This document shows, piece by piece, positions 3,075 to 12,529 of a stretch of DNA of 23,444 nucleotides. How positions within the stretch are numbered: position 1 is the first letter of the stretch; every line of letters starts with the position of its first letter. Origin of the DNA: a virus (Duplodnaviria; Heunggongvirae; Uroviricota; Caudoviricetes); the IMG/VR virus record IMGVR_UViG_3300045988_101337, positions 1-23,444 of that record. One strand, given 5' to 3'. A program made the position numbers and the translations under genes. Under the pieces are notes generated by a model, which saw only the letters and a list, made by a program, of their open reading frames with translations, was not told the origin of the DNA and made no database searches.

Positions 3075-3571
3075 CAGTGATGACGCTCAATCTCGTTGAA
3101 AAACAGCCAGCAGCTATGCGCCGGATAATTGGTAAGCATCTGGCCGTCCCTCGCTGGCAGGAGACATGCGATTATTATAATCAGATGATGGAACGCGAAC
3201 GGCTAACGGTTTGCTTCCATGCGCAGTTAAAACAGCGTCACGCAACGATGCGTTTTGAAGAAATGAACGACGTCGAACGTGAACGGCTGGTTTGTGCAAT
3301 TGATGAACTGCGTGGGGCATTCTCAAAACGCCGTCAGGTCGGTGCAAGTGAGTATGCATATATTAGCTTTTTAACTGTCAGTCAGCGCCGTACTTTATTT
3401 ATGCATGCCGGATTGACTGAAAAAGAATTCAACCAGCCATACTGGCGAATTAATGAAGAATCATGTTACTGGCGTGATGCCTTATTCCGTGCATTACGTG
3501 AATTATTCAGCCTGTTTGAGTATGCACCGACAATTCTGACGTCGGTAAAACCAGAGCAATATCTGCATTAA
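3071..3571 (+). CDS. B: Replication protein B (166 aa)
   Basis: 166-aa ORF, the same length as P2 B, in the same syntenic position after cox/orf78 and translationally coupled to the upstream ORF. Confidence 0.82.
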   Translation: MTVMTLNLVEKQPAAMRRIIGKHLAVPRWQETCDYYNQMMERERLTVCFHAQLKQRHATMRFEEMNDVERERLVCAIDELRGAFSKRRQVGASEYAYISFLTVSQRRTLFMHAGLTEKEFNQPYWRINEESCYWRDALFRALRELFSLFEYAPTILTSVKPEQYLH

Positions 3572-3601
3572 GTAATTAACCAGAGTTTTTAACGCACTTA
3601 A

Positions 3602-3859
3602 TTGTGCGGGGCTTCTTTTTGCCTGGAGAAAGTCATACATACAGTTTCTGAAAATCAGTGCGGTAAATACGCATTACTGCTGCAACAGGCCAGAACCGAA
3701 GCACAGGCCGACGCAGCGACGCGCTTTTCTTCTCATCTTGACGCCATGATTCGCCACATCACAAAGGCGGAGTTATCCCGCGTAGAGATAGTCGAGCTGC
3801 TCAGTCAGGAGTCGGAAAAATTTCACAATATCGGATTGTCTCGCGGGGAGGTGCTTTGA
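3602..3859 (+). CDS. Small early hypothetical protein (P2 orf80 position)
   Basis: 85-aa ORF in the early operon; its stop overlaps the start of the next ORF (ATGA at 3856). Confidence 0.5.
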
Positions 3860-4161
3860 TGTCCTGTTCTCGTTCAGTTGTATTACTGAATAACGCCTTA
3901 AAAATCACCGTTATGAAAAATGGCGATCTATCTCTTATTCAACTTGGTCTTGATAAAGAAAAACGCGAAATAACTGAGTCTGTTATCGCGATTTATCAGA
4001 ACGAATTAAATCTCCTGTCTGATGTGGTCAATTTACTTGTTAAACGCGCTGTATTTCACAAGCAAATCTCCTCCGTGGATGAACTGACGAAATTAACGAC
4101 AGAAATTGCCAGCTATTGCGCTGATGAATTTAAAAAACTTAACGACAAAAGGAACTGGTAA
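3856..4161 (+). CDS. Small early hypothetical protein (P2 orf81 position)
   Basis: 101-aa ORF, translationally coupled on both sides. Confidence 0.55.
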
Positions 4162-4385: not shown

Positions 4386-4657
4386 GTATTCGTATTGAAA
4401 TTGGCGAACGTTATGTCGTTACCAGTGACAGCTTTCAGTTTATTCTCCACGAGAAAAAGAGAGCGGAAAGCGGTAAAAACGCCGGTCAGGAATGGCTGGC
4501 GGTGGTTGGTTATTATCCGAAATTAAGCCAGCTCGTTTCCGGCCTGATGCATCACGATATTCTGACCGGAAGCGCAAAGTCTTTTGCTGATTTAAACGCG
4601 CAGGTTGAGCAACTCAGCAGGCGTTGTTCAGAGGCTTTTGGCTCATATGGCCGTTAA
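4382..4657 (+). CDS. Small early hypothetical protein (P2 orf83 position)
   Basis: 91-aa ORF that overlaps the start of A. Confidence 0.5.
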   Translation: MSIRIEIGERYVVTSDSFQFILHEKKRAESGKNAGQEWLAVVGYYPKLSQLVSGLMHHDILTGSAKSFADLNAQVEQLSRRCSEAFGSYGR

Positions 4658-6926
4658 AGCCTCCGGGCGTTTTGTCCCTCCTTCAGCATTTGCTGCAGGC
4701 ACCGGTAAGGCGTTTACCGGTGCTTATGCATGGAACGCGCCACGCGAGGCCGTCGGGCGCGAAAGACCCCTTACACGTGACGAGATGCGTCAGGTGCAAG
4801 GTGTTTTATCCACGATTAACCGCCTGCCTTACTTTTTGCGCTCGCTGTTTACTTCACGCTATGACTACATCCGGCGCAATAAAAGCCCGGTACACGGGTT
4901 TTATTTCCTCACATCCACTTTTCAGCGTCGTTTATGGCCGCGCATTGAGCGTGTGAATCAGCGCCATGAAATGAACACCGACGCGTCGTTACTGTTTCTG
5001 GCAGAGCGTGACCACTATGCGCGCCTGCCGGGAATGAATGACAAGGAGCTGAAAAAGTTTGCTGCCCGTATCTCATCGCAGCTTTTCATGATGTATGAGG
5101 AACTCAGCGATGCCTGGGTGGATGCGCATGGCGAAAAAGAATCGCTGTTTACGGATGAGGCGCAGGCTCACCTCTATGGTCATGTTGCTGGCGCTGCACG
5201 TGCTTTCAATATTTCCCCTCTCTACTGGAAAAAATACCGTAAAGGACAGATGACCACGAGGCAGGCATATTCTGCCATTGCCCGTCTGTTTAACGATGAG
5301 TGGTGGACTCATCAGCTTAAAGGTCAGCGTATGCGCTGGCATGAGGCGTTACTGATTGCTGTCGGGGAGGTGAATAAAGACCGTTCTCCTTATGCCAGTA
5401 AACATGCCATTCGTGATGTGCGTGCGCGCCGCCAGGCAAATCTGGAATTTCTTAAATCGTGTGACCTTGAAAACAGGGAAACCGGCGAGCGCATCGACCT
5501 TATCAGTAAGGTGATGGGAAGTATTTCTAATCCTGAAATTCGCCGGATGGAGCTGATGAACACCATTGCCGGTATTGAGCGTTACGCCGCTGCAGAGGGT
5601 GATGTGGGGATGTTTATCACGCTGACCGCGCCGTCAAAGTATCACCCGACACGTCAGGTCGGAAAAGGCGAAAGTAAAACCGTTCAGCTTAATCACGGCT
5701 GGAACGATGAGGCATTTAATCCAAAGGATGCGCAGCGTTATCTCTGCCGTATCTGGAGCCTGATGCGCACGGCATTCAAGGATAATGATTTACAGGCCTA
5801 CGGTTTGCGTGTCGTCGAGCCACACCACGACGGAACGCCGCACTGGCATATGATGCTTTTTTGTAATCCACGCCAGCGTAACCAGATTATCGAAATCATG
5901 CGTCGCTATGCGCTCAAAGAGGATGGCGACGAAAGAGGAGCCGCGCGAAACCGTTTTCAGGCAAAACATCTTAACCGGGGCGGTGCTGCGGGGTATATCG
6001 CGAAATACATCTCAAAAAATATCGACGGCTATGCACTGGATGGGCAGCTCGATAACGATACCGGCAGACCGCTGAAAGATACTGCCGCGGCTGTTACCGC
6101 ATGGGCGTCAACGTGGCGCATTCCGCAATTTAAAACGGTTGGCCTGCCGACAATGGGGGCTTACCGTGAACTACGCAAATTGCCTCGCGGCGTCAGCATT
6201 GCTGATGAGTTTGACGAGCGCGTCGAGGCTGCACGCGCCGCCGCAGACAGTGGTGATTTTGCGTTGTATATCAGCGCGCAGGGTGGGGCAAATGTTCCGC
6301 GCGATTGTCAGACTGTCAGAGTCGCCCGTAGCCCGTCGGATGACGTTAACGAGTACGAGGAAGAGGTCGAGAGAGTGGTCGGCATTTACGCGCCGCATCT
6401 CGGCGCGCGTCATATTCATATCACCAGAACCACGGACTGGCGCATTGTGCCGAAAGTGCCGGTCGTTGAGCCTTTGACTTTAAAAAGCGGCATCGCCGCG
6501 CCTCGGAGTCCTGTCAATAACTGTGGAAAGCTCACCGGTGGTGATACTTCGTTACCGGCTCCCACACCTTCTGAGCACGCCGCAGCAGTGCTTAATCTGG
6601 TAGATGACGGTGTTATCGAATGGAATGACCCGGAGGTCGTGAGGGCGCTCAGAGGTGCATTAAAACACGGCCTGAGAAGACCAAACCGTCAGCAAAGAAA
6701 CGGAAGCCCGTTAAAACCGCATGAAATAGCGCCATCGGCCAGACTGACCCGGTCTGAACGATTGCAAATCACCCGTATCCGCGTTGACCTTGCTCAGAAC
6801 GGTATCAGGCCGCAGCGATGGGAGCTTGAGGCGCTGGCGCGTGGCGCGACCGTAAATTATGACGGGAAAAAATTCACGTATCCGGTCGCTGATGAGTGGT
6901 CGGGATTCTGGCATCAATTTGAGTAA
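4647..6926 (+). CDS. A: Replication initiation endonuclease A, rolling-circle initiator (about 759 aa); listed ORF 4605..6926 trimmed to the ATG at 4647
   Basis: Large ORF in the P2 A position. Starting at MAVKASGRFVPP gives a length close to P2 A (about 761 aa). The upstream in-frame ATG at 4605 lies inside orf83 and is less likely. It contains the HxH-like metal motif (PHWHMM) and a paired-tyrosine segment (YIAKYISK) expected of rolling-circle initiators. Confidence 0.9.
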   Translation: MAVKASGRFVPPSAFAAGTGKAFTGAYAWNAPREAVGRERPLTRDEMRQVQGVLSTINRLPYFLRSLFTSRYDYIRRNKSPVHGFYFLTSTFQRRLWPRIERVNQRHEMNTDASLLFLAERDHYARLPGMNDKELKKFAARISSQLFMMYEELSDAWVDAHGEKESLFTDEAQAHLYGHVAGAARAFNISPLYWKKYRKGQMTTRQAYSAIARLFNDEWWTHQLKGQRMRWHEALLIAVGEVNKDRSPYASKHAIRDVRARRQANLEFLKSCDLENRETGERIDLISKVMGSISNPEIRRMELMNTIAGIERYAAAEGDVGMFITLTAPSKYHPTRQVGKGESKTVQLNHGWNDEAFNPKDAQRYLCRIWSLMRTAFKDNDLQAYGLRVVEPHHDGTPHWHMMLFCNPRQRNQIIEIMRRYALKEDGDERGAARNRFQAKHLNRGGAAGYIAKYISKNIDGYALDGQLDNDTGRPLKDTAAAVTAWASTWRIPQFKTVGLPTMGAYRELRKLPRGVSIADEFDERVEAARAAADSGDFALYISAQGGANVPRDCQTVRVARSPSDDVNEYEEEVERVVGIYAPHLGARHIHITRTTDWRIVPKVPVVEPLTLKSGIAAPRSPVNNCGKLTGGDTSLPAPTPSEHAAAVLNLVDDGVIEWNDPEVVRALRGALKHGLRRPNRQQRNGSPLKPHEIAPSARLTRSERLQITRIRVDLAQNGIRPQRWELEALARGATVNYDGKKFTYPVADEWSGFWHQFE

Positions 6927-7015
6927 GGATCTCATCTATACAGTATAAGTAGTTTTGACTGTAATTGATTGTTTTTTATATGGTTGCATGCATTAAATCT
7001 ACGTCAATATCATTA

Positions 7016-7024
7016 TGTTATAAT
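7016..7024 (+). promoter_or_regulatory. Candidate extended -10 promoter (TGnTATAAT) for the cargo operon
   Basis: TGTTATAAT at 7016-7024, about 30 bp upstream of the ATG at 7053, in an AT-rich intergenic region after A. There is no good -35, which is consistent with the extended -10 class. Confidence 0.35.
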
Positions 7025-7052
7025 GCATTACTTAAAAATGTTGGAGATAAAA

Positions 7053-7244
7053 ATGTTAAAGCCTGCAGATGTTGTTTGTTTGAAAAGCGGTGGATTTAAA
7101 ATGACTGTATCTGACTCTACTGAAACTCATGCTAAATGTATTTGGCATGATAAAGAAGGAGTTTTGCACGAGGAGTCATTCTCCATTGATTTACTGGAAA
7201 TAGCAGAGAGTAAAAGTGGTATGCTTTGTCGTCCACGTAAGTGA
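7053..7244 (+). CDS. Small DUF2158/YodC-like protein (63 aa), first gene of the cargo cassette; listed ORF 6969..7244 trimmed
   Basis: ATG at 7053 follows a GGAGATAAAA RBS. The N-terminus MLKPADVVCLKSGGFKMTV resembles the conserved start of YodC/DUF2158 small proteins as I recall it. AT-rich. Confidence 0.5.
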   Translation: MLKPADVVCLKSGGFKMTVSDSTETHAKCIWHDKEGVLHEESFSIDLLEIAESKSGMLCRPRK

Positions 7245-7271
7245 ATCATAATAAAATTCACGGGGGAAAGT

Positions 7272-7952
7272 ATGAAACAATACAGCGAATTAGAAAACAA
7301 TGTTAAGAGATTCATTGTTGAGCATGAAAAAGGGATTTCTATTGATGATATTCATCATAAGTTCCGGATGAAGGATGGTCAGAATCGCAAGATGGCAGAT
7401 TATCTTATTAATAATAAAAAGATAATTTTGGAGATGAAAAGTCTTTTTTCTGACAGGGTCAAGAATGTCAATGATAAACTGAATGAGTTGGTTAAAACTG
7501 ATAGTTGGCTTGCAAAAAACTGGCATGGTGCTATTCATTTAGAAGAGTTGATAAAAAGACACCCAGACTCAAAGCGATTTAGAAATGATATAATGAACTT
7601 TGCTTATGAAAATATTAAAACAAAGATAGTTAAGGAAGCTAATAAGCAAATAAATGCAACAAAGGATGTTTTGGATTTAAATGACTCGATTGGCGGGTTG
7701 ATTTTGTTAAATGATAATGTCTTTTCACATGAGTCTAATTATTTGTCAGATGAAATATTATATTTGCTAGGCACAAAGAGATATTCGAGTGTTGAGTTTG
7801 TGGTTTATATTGCAAAATTGATTGATAAACAGGTTGATGTTTGTGTGCTACTTGACAGTCAATCTAAAAATAAAAATTATATTGAATGGTATATGAATAA
7901 TGTTTTTTTATTGAACTGGGCGTCTTTTAATAAATATGCAATAAAGATGTAG
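7272..7952 (+). CDS. Uncharacterised 226-aa protein in the variable A-cos locus (candidate defence protein)
   Basis: Long clean ORF with a GGGGGAAAG RBS, 27 bp after the small ORF and so probably co-transcribed. AT-rich and Lys/Asn-rich. No P2 counterpart. A possible D ... ExK arrangement (ADYLINNKKIILEMKS) is only a motif-level hint of a PD-(D/E)xK nuclease. Confidence 0.6.
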   Translation: MKQYSELENNVKRFIVEHEKGISIDDIHHKFRMKDGQNRKMADYLINNKKIILEMKSLFSDRVKNVNDKLNELVKTDSWLAKNWHGAIHLEELIKRHPDSKRFRNDIMNFAYENIKTKIVKEANKQINATKDVLDLNDSIGGLILLNDNVFSHESNYLSDEILYLLGTKRYSSVEFVVYIAKLIDKQVDVCVLLDSQSKNKNYIEWYMNNVFLLNWASFNKYAIKM

Positions 7953-8271
7953 TGGTGTGGATGGATATGAAATGAGTCAACCAAGATGCACCTTGGTCAG
8001 TAATCTCATGTGAGATACCACATATAACACCAAAAGTGTCAGGTTGATGGCCATTGTTCACCGTTTACAGCAGATTATGGTCAACGAAAATCTGACGCCT
8101 GACGAGCTGGTCGGGTGTGCCGAAATAGTCTGGGATAATTACGGGCGGTTTAACTATATCGGTCAGTCCAGAGTTGCGCCACCACCACGCAGACGATAGA
8201 GAACGCCGCCAGTCGTGAAACTTGTTTTCAGGCTGGCGGGGTTGAACAACGAGCGAAGTGAGGCGTTAGCA

Positions 8272-9213: not shown

Positions 9214-9451
9214 AACTTTCTCCGTTCAAAAACAGGCACGATAATTCTCGTAAGCCTATCATGTTCGCAAAGTATCCATACCTGTGGATTTTGTAAATTT
9301 AAGTTGATTTGTCATTAAATAAGCCGTTGCATGCAACAAGTGAATGTTTTTGCATGCGTCGGGGATGTCCGTTCAGGCTGCGTGCGGTCAGGACTGGTGC
9401 GGATCCATAGTATCTATGCAACTGCATTAAAACCGCCCCATGAAGCGGGCG

Positions 9452-9470
9452 GGCGAGGCGGGGAAAGCAC
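9452..9470. other. cos site (P2-type 19-nt cohesive end region)
   Basis: GGCGAGGCGGGGAAAGCAC matches the P2/186 cohesive end as I recall it. It lies about 80 bp beyond the 3' end of portal gene Q, as in P2. Confidence 0.6.
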
Positions 9471-9522
9471 TGCGCGCTGTTTTGTGCGGTGGTGAGTGTG
9501 TGAGGGCGTGATGACGGGGTGT

Positions 9523-9544
9523 AAAAAAGCCGCCCGCAGGCGGC
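9523..9544 (-). terminator. Rho-independent terminator after Q (minus strand)
   Basis: Minus-strand reading gives GCCGCC-TGCG-GGCGGC followed by TTTTTT, immediately after the Q stop codon. Confidence 0.55.
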
Positions 9545-9549
9545 GATGT

Positions 9550-10584
9550 TCAGCCGTTGTCAGTGTCCAGTGAGTAGTTTTTAAAGCTGATGACCTCCTG
9601 ACCGAGCCAGCCGTTTATCTCGCGGATCCTGTCCTGTAACGGGATAAGCTCATTGCGGACAAAGACCTTTGCCACTTTCTCAATATCTCCCAGTGACCCG
9701 ACGTTCTCCGGCTTGCCGCCCATCAACTGAAAGGGGATACGGTGCGCGTCCAGCAGGTCAGCGGCGCTGGCTTTTTTGATATTAAAAAAATCGTCCTTCG
9801 TTGCCACTTCACTGAGCGGGATAATTTTAATGCCGTCAGCTTTCCCCTGCGGGGCATAGAGAAACAGATTTTTAAAGTTGTTGCGACCTTTCGACTTAAC
9901 CATGTTTTCGCGAAGCATTTCGATATCGTTGCGATCCTGCACGGCATCGGTGACGTACATGATGTATCCGGCATGTGCGCCATTTTCGTAATACTTGCGG
10001 CGGAACAGCGTAGCTGATTCATTCAGCCAGGCAGAATTAAGGGCGCTGAGATATTCCGGCAGGCCGTACAGCTCCTGATTAATATCCGGCTCCAGCAGGT
10101 GAAACACGGAGCCGGGCGCGAAAGGTGTCGGCTCGTTGAAGGACGGCACCCACCAGTAAACATCCTCCTCAACACCACGGCGGGTATATTTTGCCGGTGA
10201 GGTTTCCAGTCTGATGACCTTACCGGTGGTGCTGTAGCGCTTTTCCAGAAACGCATTACCGAACACCAGAAAATCCAGCACAAAGCGGCTGAAATCCTGC
10301 TGGGAAAGCCACGGGTGCGGAATAAACGTTGAAGCCAGAATATTACGTTTGACGTAAATCGGTGAGCTGTGATGTACGGCAGCACGCAGGCTTTTTGCCA
10401 GACCGGTAAAGCTGACCGGTGGCTCATACCATCTGCCGTTACTGATGCACTCGACGTAATCCAGAATGTCACGGCGGTCGAGTACCGGCACCGGCTCACC
10501 AAAGGTGAATGCCTCCATTTTCGGGGCGCTGGCGGTGATTGTTTTTGCCGCAGGTTGCGGTGTTTTCCCTTTTTTCTTGCTCAT
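9550..10584 (-). CDS. Q: Portal protein (344 aa)
   Basis: 344-aa ORF, the same length as P2 gpQ. It is translationally coupled to P (start and stop overlap at 10584) and adjacent to cos. Confidence 0.93.
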   Translation of the reverse strand: MSKKKGKTPQPAAKTITASAPKMEAFTFGEPVPVLDRRDILDYVECISNGRWYEPPVSFTGLAKSLRAAVHHSSPIYVKRNILASTFIPHPWLSQQDFSRFVLDFLVFGNAFLEKRYSTTGKVIRLETSPAKYTRRGVEEDVYWWVPSFNEPTPFAPGSVFHLLEPDINQELYGLPEYLSALNSAWLNESATLFRRKYYENGAHAGYIMYVTDAVQDRNDIEMLRENMVKSKGRNNFKNLFLYAPQGKADGIKIIPLSEVATKDDFFNIKKASAADLLDAHRIPFQLMGGKPENVGSLGDIEKVAKVFVRNELIPLQDRIREINGWLGQEVISFKNYSLDTDNG

Positions 10585-12356
10585 CAGTAAAACTCCAGAA
10601 TGGTGGATGTCAGCGGAGTGCTGATACCGGCGGTGAGTGGCTCATTTAACAGGGCGTGCATGGTCGCCCAGGCGAGGTCGGCGTGGCTGGCTTCCTCGCT
10701 GCGGCTGGCCTCATAGGTGGCGCTGCGTCCGCTGCTGGTCATGGTCTTGCGGATAGCCATAAACGAGCTGGTGATGTCGGTGGCGCTGACGTCATATTCC
10801 AGACAGCCACGGCGGATGACGTCTTTTGCCTTGAGCACCATTGCGGTTTTCATTTCCGGCGTGTAGCGGATATCGCGCGCGGCGGGATAGAACGAGCGCA
10901 CGAGCTGGAACACGCCGACACCGAGGCCGGTGGCATCAATCCCGATGTATTCAACGTTATATTTTTCGGTGAGTTTGCGGATGGATTCCGCCTGGGTGGC
11001 AAAGTCCATGCCTTTCCACTGGTGACGCTCAAGTATTCTGAATTTGCCACCGGCCACCACCGGCGGTGCCAGCACCACGCATCCGGCGCTGTCGCCACGG
11101 TGTGACGGGTCGTAACCAATCCATACCGGACGTGAGCCGAACGGATTGACGGCAAACGGCGCATAGTCTTCCCATTCTTCCAGCGTATCGACCATGCAGC
11201 GTTGCAGCTCCTCGAACGGGAACACCGACGCCTTGTCGTCAACAAATTCACACATGAACAGGTTTTTAAAATCGTCGGCGCTGTTTTCACGTTTGAGCTG
11301 CTCAATGTCGAACAGCGTGCAGCCACCTTTCAGGGCATCCTCAATGGTGACAATCTGCCGCCACTGGCCGTCCGCACAGAGAAGCCCACCGGCAAGGGCG
11401 TTATGACTGACGTCGATTTCCACGCGTTCGGCGGCGCTGGCGCGTCCCCGGTTGAACAGTTCACCTGACCAGAACGGGTAGGCGTCGTGCGCCAGCGTGG
11501 ACGGGGTGGAGAAATAGGTCGAGCGCAGGTGACTCTGTGAGGCCATACCTGATGCCACCTTACGCAGTACCTGAAAATTCGGGATCCAGAAAATCTCGTC
11601 GACGTACAGGTCGCCGTTATGGCTCTGCGCGGTGTTGGAGTTGGTGCCGAGAAAAATCAGTTTTGCGCCGTTATTGCCAAGGACAATCGGGTCACCGGTC
11701 AGGTCAACGTCAACCAGACGGGCAAAGGCGATGATGTATTCACGGAACACATACGCCTGCGTTTTACTGGCCGACAGAAAAATCTGGTTATGACCGGTTT
11801 TCAGGGCGCGCAGCAGCGCCTCGCGGGAAAAATAAAACGTCGCGCCAATCTGGCGGGATTTCAGGATATCGCGGATGCGGTGCTCAAGCCCGGCGCGATA
11901 CCAGTGCAACTGATATTCAAAAGACTGCTCAAAGAAAATCTGCTCCAGCTTTTCGATGGCCTCGTCACTGAAAAAATTCTTTTTCGGTTTGCGACGCCCG
12001 CCTTTGTTGCGGTTAGCGACGTTCGGATTAAGGTCTGCCTCGTTGCCGGTCTGACTGTAGCGGTTGACCCGTGCCAGTCGTTCAATCTGACGTCCCAGCA
12101 GGTCAATTTCCTTGAAGTCACCGCCGGTTTTCTGCGGTTTGATGATGAGCTGGGTCAGCCGCGCTTCCAGACTCATTTCGACACGGCTGATGGGGGCAAC
12201 GCTGTCCCAGCCGTCGCGCTGTTTCCAGCTCTGCACCGTCGGGCGTTTCATCTGCAACATGGCGGCAATCTGCGGCACGGAAAACCCCTGCCAGTACAGC
12301 AGCGCCGCCTGACGACGCGGGTCGTGTAAAAGAGTGGTGTCTGTGGTGATGGTCAT
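10584..12356 (-). CDS. P: Terminase large (ATPase) subunit (590 aa); listed ORF 10584..12386 trimmed to the ATG at 12356
   Basis: Starting at MTITTDTT gives 590 aa, the length of P2 gpP. It sits upstream of portal in the leftward Q-P late operon. Confidence 0.93.
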   Translation of the reverse strand: MTITTDTTLLHDPRRQAALLYWQGFSVPQIAAMLQMKRPTVQSWKQRDGWDSVAPISRVEMSLEARLTQLIIKPQKTGGDFKEIDLLGRQIERLARVNRYSQTGNEADLNPNVANRNKGGRRKPKKNFFSDEAIEKLEQIFFEQSFEYQLHWYRAGLEHRIRDILKSRQIGATFYFSREALLRALKTGHNQIFLSASKTQAYVFREYIIAFARLVDVDLTGDPIVLGNNGAKLIFLGTNSNTAQSHNGDLYVDEIFWIPNFQVLRKVASGMASQSHLRSTYFSTPSTLAHDAYPFWSGELFNRGRASAAERVEIDVSHNALAGGLLCADGQWRQIVTIEDALKGGCTLFDIEQLKRENSADDFKNLFMCEFVDDKASVFPFEELQRCMVDTLEEWEDYAPFAVNPFGSRPVWIGYDPSHRGDSAGCVVLAPPVVAGGKFRILERHQWKGMDFATQAESIRKLTEKYNVEYIGIDATGLGVGVFQLVRSFYPAARDIRYTPEMKTAMVLKAKDVIRRGCLEYDVSATDITSSFMAIRKTMTSSGRSATYEASRSEEASHADLAWATMHALLNEPLTAGISTPLTSTILEFY

Positions 12357-12529
12357 GAATACCTCGCCGTGATGAATACACGGCAAGGCTACTGAGTCGC
12401 GCCCCGCGATTCGCTAAGGTGCTGTTGTGTCAGTGATAAGCCATCCGGGACTGATGGCGGAGGATGCGCATCGTCGGGAAACTGATGCCGACATGTGACT
12501 CCTCTACTCACTATTCAGGACTCCTGACA

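Follow-up and report, generated by a model that had tools for sequence, protein, structure and literature searches.

A predicted PD-(D/E)xK-fold nuclease and its DUF2158 companion in a low-GC cassette of a P2-type prophage

What does a 226-amino-acid (aa) protein that previously had no domain assignment contribute to a P2-type prophage? The question is raised by ORF226, an open reading frame (ORF) located in IMG/VR virus record IMGVR_UViG_3300045988_101337, of which the whole stretch of 23,444 nucleotides was analyzed here and is referred to as the window. The source element of the window is a P2-type prophage; the window is 97% identical to phage P2 across 77% of its length, and the isolated phage vB_EcoM-720R8 covers 93% of it. 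The interval between gpA and gpQ of P2-like phages, in which ORF226 lies, was described as a hotspot of anti-phage systems, and its cargo acting against phages includes old, tin, retrons, DUF4238 and others (Rousset et al. 2022, PMC9122126). ORF226, the small DUF2158 gene upstream of it and a third gene had been deposited in 2006 as ORF226, ORF73 and ORF313 of prophage P2-EC67 of strain ECOR67 (GenBank AM157369). Our analysis predicts that ORF226 is a member of the PD-(D/E)xK nuclease superfamily, and we assign a probability of about 0.5 to the reading that it is an endonuclease cargo, expressed together with the DUF2158 gene, which cuts DNA in conflicts between mobile elements.

The ORF226 gene and its predicted active site

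The features on which this assignment is based are as follows.

7245–7271, plus strand: intergenic spacer of 27 bp, with a Shine-Dalgarno-like run and no terminator in the terminator scan
7272–7952, plus strand: ORF226, a 226-aa predicted PD-(D/E)xK-fold nuclease (WP_023136039.1, phrog_20483)
7398–7439, plus strand: codons of the predicted catalytic hairpin (D43 at 7398–7400, E54 at 7431–7433, K56 at 7437–7439)
7638–7715, plus strand: second conserved block, A123-x-x-Q126-I-x-x-T130 and N147-D148, from conservation and secondary structure

ORF226 is a real gene and not a chance ORF, because full-length homologues with 64–99% identity are found in E. coli, Salmonella, Citrobacter and Pantoea, because its ratio of nonsynonymous to synonymous substitution rates (dN/dS) against the Citrobacter and Pantoea alleles is low (0.09–0.10), and because it had already been annotated in RefSeq and GenBank. 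The DUF2158 gene had a dN/dS of 0.19 in the same comparison. ORF226 has an ATG start and 226 codons, the guanine-plus-cytosine (GC) fraction across it is 0.30–0.33, and a purine-rich Shine-Dalgarno-like run, GGGGGAAAG, is located at 7262–7270 just 5' of the ATG. An earlier sequence-only reading of this DNA had described an AT-rich frame with a ribosome-binding site and a 27-bp gap to the gene upstream, and the description was accurate in every detail. The corresponding spacer in Citrobacter is longer, at 41–43 bp, and contains a conserved AAnTTCACnGnGG element.

The same reading had pointed out an aspartate and an E-x-K motif that would be compatible with a PD-(D/E)xK core, and these residues, which lie within the peptide ADYLINNKKIILEMKS (residues 42–57), turned out to be the most conserved of the protein and to occupy canonical strand positions. 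Conservation was measured in the best 150 matches aligned to the profile, each from a different 50%-identity cluster. D43 and Q126 were conserved in 100% of these representatives, E54 and K56 in 99%, N147 in 98%, and A42, A123 and T130 in 94–96% (A123 96%, T130 96%). In a MAFFT alignment of 59 single-domain members (alignment A2), in which mean column identity was 29%, the only invariant columns were those of D43, E54, K56 and Q126. The signature of the family can be written as AD...ExK...AxxQIxxT...N[DE].

An AlphaFold2 model computed from the 59-sequence alignment had a mean predicted local distance difference test (pLDDT) score of 94.3 and a predicted template modelling (pTM) score of 0.88, with all five models scoring at least 93; a first model, computed from 14 close homologues, had a pLDDT of 82 and the same topology. 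The model displays an alpha/beta core like the alpha-beta-beta-beta-alpha-beta core of a restriction endonuclease (REase). D43 is predicted directly before strand 44–46, and E54 and K56 inside strand 51–58, which is the beta2/beta3 hairpin position typical for PD-(D/E)xK catalytic residues, and the D-x10-E-x-K spacing is also typical of the superfamily. The ORF226 family differs from other members in a helical insertion of about 75 residues (63–133) between the ExK strand and the next core strand (140–148), and in its own invariant Q126 and N147. In the model, the long helix ends with A123, Q126 and T130 and the strand after it with N147-D148, and these second-block residues are probably active-site or substrate-contact residues.

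The best fold match of the model was a restriction endonuclease, and its structural neighbours include CdiA-CT nuclease toxins. These matches were interleaved at similar Z scores with the central domain of acetyl-CoA carboxylase and with dehydrogenase domains, so that the fold signal is real but not exclusive. At the level of relatives, 10 of the 59 diverse members matched Pfam REase_DpnII-MboI (PF18742) weakly, with E values of 0.001–0.01, and one relative each matched PDDEXK_3 and Tox-REase-9. In the three relatives that were examined, the DpnII-MboI match covered residues 18–66, a segment containing their D38, E49 and K51.

Several results weigh against the nuclease assignment. No Pfam, NCBIfam or PADLOC model matched ORF226, and thus no Pfam nuclease family; a significant PDB sequence match was likewise missing. 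The sole database family match was a PHROG of unknown function that was built from ORF226 itself, and PADLOC-DB v2.0.0, searched at E ≤ 1, gave no match for ORF226, the DUF2158 protein or the neighbouring ORF313. The nuclease-family matches in the relatives were all below the Pfam gathering score (27 bits for PF18742). The placement of the active site was judged by secondary-structure position alone, and a Foldseek search of the model against the PDB returned nothing at E ≤ 0.001, with retron Eco8 as the best match at a template modelling score below 0.2. An hhalign comparison of the ORF226 family with the Mrr_cat-like domains that are found in fused relatives, represented by a 7-sequence alignment, gave a probability of 0.3%. 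The sequence-only reading had named a predicted structure as a check, and its nuclease call was supported by the confident nuclease-like fold with conserved acidic and lysine residues; the Foldseek search of the PDB was uninformative. Searches of PDB sequences with hidden Markov models (HMMs) from alignments A1 and A2 retrieved designed helical repeat proteins and cytochrome b5 at E > 0.003, and these were judged to be low-complexity helix matches.

Taken together, the fold, the position of the motif and its extreme conservation make membership of ORF226 in the PD-(D/E)xK superfamily well supported as a prediction. The ORF226 family is most probably a new, unnamed family within this known superfamily, outside any named family.

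Relatives of ORF226 and the DUF2158 companion gene

The first gene of the cassette precedes ORF226.

7053–7244 (stop codon 7242–7244), plus strand: DUF2158 protein, 63 aa (WP_001547483.1, phrog_3261)

This 63-aa protein matched Pfam DUF2158 (PF09926) with an E value of 4.7e-8 and 33.1 bits, above the gathering cut-off of 22.3; in P2-EC67 the same gene, ORF73, was given a longer start. The two genes are all-or-none in E. coli, in which 27 of 5,426 complete genomes carry both, always on the chromosome, and none carries one alone. All seven IMG/VR contigs with the ORF226 gene also have DUF2158, and the DUF2158 gene is directly upstream in 14 of 14 P2-type loci. Three different P2-type prophages retain the pair although the slot beside it has changed; two Citrobacter prophages keep it after gpA with a 250-aa unknown or a DUF2188 gene, and not ORF313, in the adjacent slot. 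Both genes diverged in parallel and both are under purifying selection. Furthermore, Table S5A of PMC9122126 gives the arrangement with exactly the RefSeq accessions found here, and Table S5B lists ORF226 and the 63-aa DUF2158 protein as 'system 63, DUF2158', with 67 occurrences. The suggestion of the sequence-only reading that ORF226 forms an operon with the small ORF is supported by the co-occurrence in 27 of 27 E. coli genomes, by the retention of the pair across prophages, by the parallel divergence and by the curation of the pair as one system by Rousset et al., and the gene geometry suggests that the two genes are co-transcribed.

Such a pairing raises the possibility of a type II toxin-antitoxin (TA) module, in which ORF226 would be a nuclease toxin and DUF2158 its antitoxin, serving prophage stabilization or abortive infection upon decay of the antitoxin. 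The antitoxin-first order of two adjacent, co-oriented genes with the small one 27 bp upstream, their strict co-occurrence (27/27 E. coli genomes, 14/14 P2-type loci) and their parallel divergence are consistent with it. CdiA-CT nuclease toxins, which are among the structural neighbours of the model, need immunity proteins, and one relative of ORF226 is located directly after a ParE/Phd pair. These points are countered by the loci outside P2. A six-frame scan of the fetched loci with an HMM built from three partner sequences detected no DUF2158-like peptide in any of 16 non-P2 loci, which include four Pantoea ananatis IncFII-type conjugative plasmids and the P0024 locus. The nuclease of the Pantoea plasmids is 61–65% identical to ORF226 and stands solitary after a 500-bp gap without a DUF2158 gene or a comparable upstream small ORF, and no DUF2158 gene was called in the gene tables of the Serratia, Vibrio, Stutzerimonas and P0074 loci. 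Across the wider family, no gene of any type was found to be a conserved neighbour. In addition, DUF2158 has no known DNA-binding or antitoxin role: the literature searched for it contained only two incidental mentions, neither of them functional, and the protein had no solved relative among PDB sequences. The ORF226 family is basically solitary, and DUF2158 is a P2-lineage-specific companion.

Because DUF2158 is absent from the non-P2 homologues, including the plasmid copies that are 61–65% identical, an obligate TA pair appears unlikely from these sequences, and we regard the TA explanation as a whole as improbable. ORF226 further differs from the CdiA-CT/Tox-REase and type II TA nucleases in that it has no delivery domain and in that the putative 'immunity' gene is missing from the non-P2 homologues scanned. 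A regulatory role of DUF2158 within P2 may be compatible with this pattern of pairing.

The extent of the family depended on the search method. A word-indexed search recovered 26 close clusters only, all from Enterobacterales, and a search of species-representative genomes with alignment A1 found no relative. A HMMER profile search of 1.84 billion representatives detected 348 proteins at E ≤ 0.001, 75 of them at E ≤ 1e-10; the family therefore comprises at least 348 representatives at 50% identity, from many phyla and including multidomain forms. BLAST clustering separated two clades. The proximal clade (n=23) includes ORF226 together with proteins of Pantoea, Serratia, Vibrio and Stutzerimonas; the members of the distal clade (n=114) fall into three size groups, of about 245 aa, of about 335 aa with a conserved helical extension at the C-terminus, and of 440–740 aa.

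In the class of about 600–740 aa, the ORF226-like module is located at approximately residues 346–510, after an N-terminal Mrr_cat-type domain (PF04471 matches in 2 of 10 scanned fused proteins), and some of the fused relatives have a SEC-C motif at the C-terminus. The full D/ExK/Q/N signature is retained in all 15 proteins of more than 400 aa. The Mrr_cat-like domain of the fusions has no conserved ExK lysine, which suggests that the ORF226-like module would be the active nuclease in them. These observations bear on the explanation that ORF226, either as a catalytically inert PD-(D/E)xK-like fold or with another fold altogether, binds DNA or serves in regulation. Near-absolute conservation of D, E-x-K, Q and N over more than 150 highly divergent representatives marks an active site rather than a scaffold, and in the fusions it is the Mrr_cat-like domain that looks degenerate and the ORF226-like module that retains its motif; an inert protein is thus the most improbable of the explanations considered here. 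PADLOC returned nothing of substance for ten fused relatives. Seven of the fused relatives (P0042, P0046, P0047, P0055, P0066, P0111 and P0129; 563–739 aa) have a middle region without a Pfam match, and the whole Mrr_cat-like/middle/ORF226-like/SEC-C architecture has no Pfam description.

Members of the proximal clade were found consistently on mobile elements. The Pantoea relative is carried by a conjugative plasmid, beside a PLD-type nuclease gene and repA. A Serratia fonticola relative that is 40% identical to ORF226 is located directly after a CI/Peptidase_S24 repressor gene; the cluster (contig L030, 944–9539) contains DUF4238, which adjoins the relative, a BamHI REase with controller and N6_N4 methyltransferase, DUF3800 and a large serine recombinase, and resembles a small defence island carried by an integrative element. 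DUF4238 is a P2-hotspot gene validated against T7 by Rousset et al. (PMC9122126). The relative in Vibrio sp. ED002 (chromosomal locus L031, 1–16693) is part of a long unidirectional array of small cassettes with 'ORFs' of 29–30 codons between them, which looks like a superintegron; other cassettes of this array carry GIY-YIG, Mrr_cat-like, SLATT_5, DUF4145 and DUF2971 genes. The Stutzerimonas stutzeri relative begins 8 bp after the ParE/Phd pair on an integrase-bearing island, and the P0074 relative 15 bp after an integrase gene on a small element with a gpA-type replication protein. A 220-aa unknown recurs 3' of the Stutzerimonas gene (three contigs, L032–L034), and 99-aa and 221-aa unknowns recur 3' of the P0074 gene (two contigs, L035–L036); by analogy with DUF2158 in P2, these downstream neighbours could be lineage-specific partners. 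The contig of P0024 (L010), whose protein is 64% identical to ORF226, contains a P2-type portal fragment at 3514–3861, which shares 77% identity with the Citrobacter portal along 106 aa, together with a DUF559/MTES_1575 endonuclease-domain gene and an Hcp gene. This locus looks like a decayed and rearranged P2 hotspot that kept the nuclease without DUF2158.

For nine distal-clade genes from six phyla, 59 neighbours were compared, and no Pfam family recurred beyond two ABC-transporter matches; a Pfam-blind all-against-all comparison also revealed no shared neighbour. It is in these solitary genes, scattered among unrelated housekeeping genes, that a selfish, free-standing homing-type endonuclease might be recognized, which would cut gpA-orf92 alleles lacking the cassette and spread by repair. 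PD-(D/E)xK homing endonucleases exist, and ORF226, a nuclease gene on its own, is inserted at a constant position with conserved phage sequence on either side. Its rarity (27 of 5,426 E. coli genomes) is unlike a driving element, however, and the same gene occurs in unlike backbones such as plasmids, integron-like arrays and integrase islands. In addition, a repeat scan of the island detected no flanking repeats or target-like duplications, and homing genes in decay do not typically show strong purifying selection maintained across deep divergence. A homing origin therefore seems very unlikely to us.

The island between gpA and the portal gene

The cassette is part of a larger low-GC island, for which the following features were recorded.

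4605–6926: replication gene A (gpA; Pfam Phage_GPA, E 3e-123)
6927–8011: low-GC cassette, from the gpA stop to DNA common to P2 and Wphi, delimited by composition, similarity and the Wphi annotation
6955–6984, plus strand: candidate sigma-70-like promoter TTGACT-18-TATGGT 5' of the DUF2158 gene, weak, with 9 of 12 consensus positions
8044–8199, plus strand: ORF of 51 codons
8272–9213, minus strand: ORF313, 313 aa (phrog_5937)
9550–10584, minus strand: portal gene
10584–12386, minus strand: terminase gene

The GC fraction of the island between gpA and the portal gene is 0.30–0.39, compared to 0.51–0.58 in the flanking phage genes. The island contains four ORFs, those of the 63-aa DUF2158 protein, ORF226 and the 51-codon ORF on the plus strand and that of the 313-aa ORF313 on the minus strand. 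The position of the cassette corresponds to that of orf91/orf92 of Wphi, and similarity to other P2-like phages starts again at window position 8012. Promoter-like sites in the region were not enriched relative to shuffled sequences (14 observed versus 9.5 ± 3.7 expected), no terminator was detected between gpA and the cassette, and an Rfam scan of the island revealed no RNA gene at threshold.

Another explanation is that the nuclease serves the phage's own cycle and not host immunity, by degradation of host or competitor DNA during lytic growth, by processing of replication or recombination intermediates beside gpA, or by counter-defence. With no terminator detected downstream of gene A, early-operon read-through into the cassette is possible; the cassette takes the place of orf91/orf92, which are early-region genes in Wphi; the isolated and viable phage vB_EcoM-720R8 carries it; and the hotspot also has non-defence cargo. 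The cassette is present, however, in only 27 of 2,156 E. coli genomes that match the P2 region and is therefore dispensable for the P2 life cycle, its low GC and its own promoter-like site resemble a moron, and relatives are carried by plasmids, integron-like cassettes and non-phage islands. A function in the phage cycle is accordingly an unlikely explanation.

ORF313, which had no match in Pfam, PADLOC or NCBIfam, was rejected as a third component of the cassette, as it occurs in 93 E. coli genomes compared to 27 for the pair, and it is separable, with Yersinia phages having ORF313 without the pair and Citrobacter the pair without ORF313. It sits in the classical tin/old slot beside cos and is an uncharacterized hotspot gene. 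The ORF226 cassette differs from tin/old cargo in its location, being upstream at the orf91/orf92 position, and ORF226 is unrelated in sequence to Old (ABC ATPase and TOPRIM) or Tin. The DNA at 8012–8269, comprising the end of gp92 and sequence downstream, is conserved in P2 and Wphi. The RefSeq label of the 51-codon ORF within it, 'meiotically up-regulated 80 protein', is a fission-yeast name and surely a spurious transfer. Two strong terminator-like hairpins with GC-rich stems followed by T runs are located at 9433–9546 (minus strand) between ORF313 and the portal gene, in a GC-rich stretch where P2-type phages carry cos.

Proposed role of the cassette

Hotspots of this kind carry nuclease effectors more often than any other cargo, and the ORF226 cassette resembles the known cargo in occupying the same type of slot and in being small, low in GC and moron-like. 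ORF226 lies in the gpA-gpQ hotspot, and the Serratia relative lies beside DUF4238, BamHI and DUF3800 genes. ORF226 is a plausible candidate for a defence gene in a known hotspot, and most likely a nuclease effector in mobile-element conflicts. This role has its own counter-evidence. The distal-clade relatives are found mostly among housekeeping genes and not in a hotspot context, and some cargo of the P2 hotspot has functions other than defence, for example partition systems and the cdt toxin (PMC9122126). Moreover, Rousset et al. did not include the cassette proteins in the systems that they cloned, the peptides being absent from Tables S2A and S2B (PMC9122126). It was considered whether the validated three-gene anti-P1 system with 'no clear domain' of that study is the island described here, and this was rejected, all three island peptides being absent from Table S2. 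The literature searched contained no citation of the cassette accessions. Judged by sequence comparison, the cassette is outside any known defence system (no PADLOC match).

The cassette does not have the composition of a restriction-modification system, since no cognate methyltransferase was found in the island or near the relatives of ORF226. Within the island, none of the three larger proteins had a Pfam methyltransferase match, and the 51-codon ORF was scanned against NCBIfam only; no methyltransferase was among the 25 of 64 families listed for the 59 neighbours of distal relatives. In this respect, ORF226 is more similar to type IV enzymes such as Mrr, being a stand-alone nuclease without a methyltransferase and, outside P2, without an immunity partner, and some of its relatives are fused to an Mrr_cat-like domain. 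It differs from Mrr in that no modified-base-reading domain was identified in it and in that the Mrr_cat-like domains of the fusions appear degenerate, without profile similarity to the ORF226 module. That ORF226 depends on DNA modification is pure inference.

For the preferred reading, an endonuclease cargo acting in mobile-element conflicts, the following mechanism is proposed, in which we infer that ORF226 is catalytic, that its substrate is DNA and that it acts in defence, and likewise any contribution of DUF2158. ORF226 would be a metal-dependent endonuclease and an accessory cargo of the gpA-gpQ variable region, with a catalytic centre in which D43, where one strand begins, is joined by E54 and K56 from the strand after it, and with Q126 and N147-D148 probably helping to bind metal or substrate. 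It would be transcribed with the upstream DUF2158 gene in the lysogen as a two-gene, moron-type cassette, and the nuclease would cut the DNA of superinfecting phages or of competing elements and plasmids and spare the lysogen. Because there is no methyltransferase and, in most lineages, no partner, this sparing of self would depend on which substrates the enzyme itself prefers or on how it is regulated, and not on an obligate immunity protein, comparable to type IV-like or gated nucleases. DUF2158 would then be a P2-lineage-specific accessory, either a modulator or an adaptor, and not a required antitoxin.

More tentatively, DUF2158 and ORF226 could constitute a new anti-phage or anti-plasmid system, consisting of a methylase-less, restriction-type nuclease that reads a mark or structure which it does not itself install, and of DUF2158 as its P2-specific modulator; this is a possibility to which we give distinctly less weight than to the preferred reading. 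Candidates for the mark that tells self from non-self would be the housekeeping methylation state of the host, base modification of the phage, or a replication intermediate. Most close relatives come from bacteria with methylation of their own GATC sites, and a mechanism of 'borrowed host methylation' is conceivable because of this and of the weak DpnII/MboI-type similarity.

In conclusion, the cassette had already been catalogued, and its large protein previously had no domain assignment; what is new beyond the literature is the fold and active-site assignment for a catalogued, unstudied hotspot cassette, and the recognition of a sizeable unannotated nuclease family, which is a new family and not a new kind of system. 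A gene that had been 'hypothetical' since 2006 now has a testable biochemical assignment, consisting of a predicted fold, three predicted catalytic residues and a signature. If the cassette does not protect, it would add a further divergent family to the very large PD-(D/E)xK superfamily. If it does protect, it would be a compact system of 0.9 kb and would provide the first function for DUF2158/YodC-type proteins. The definition of the family would improve the annotation of many genomes and screens for defence islands.

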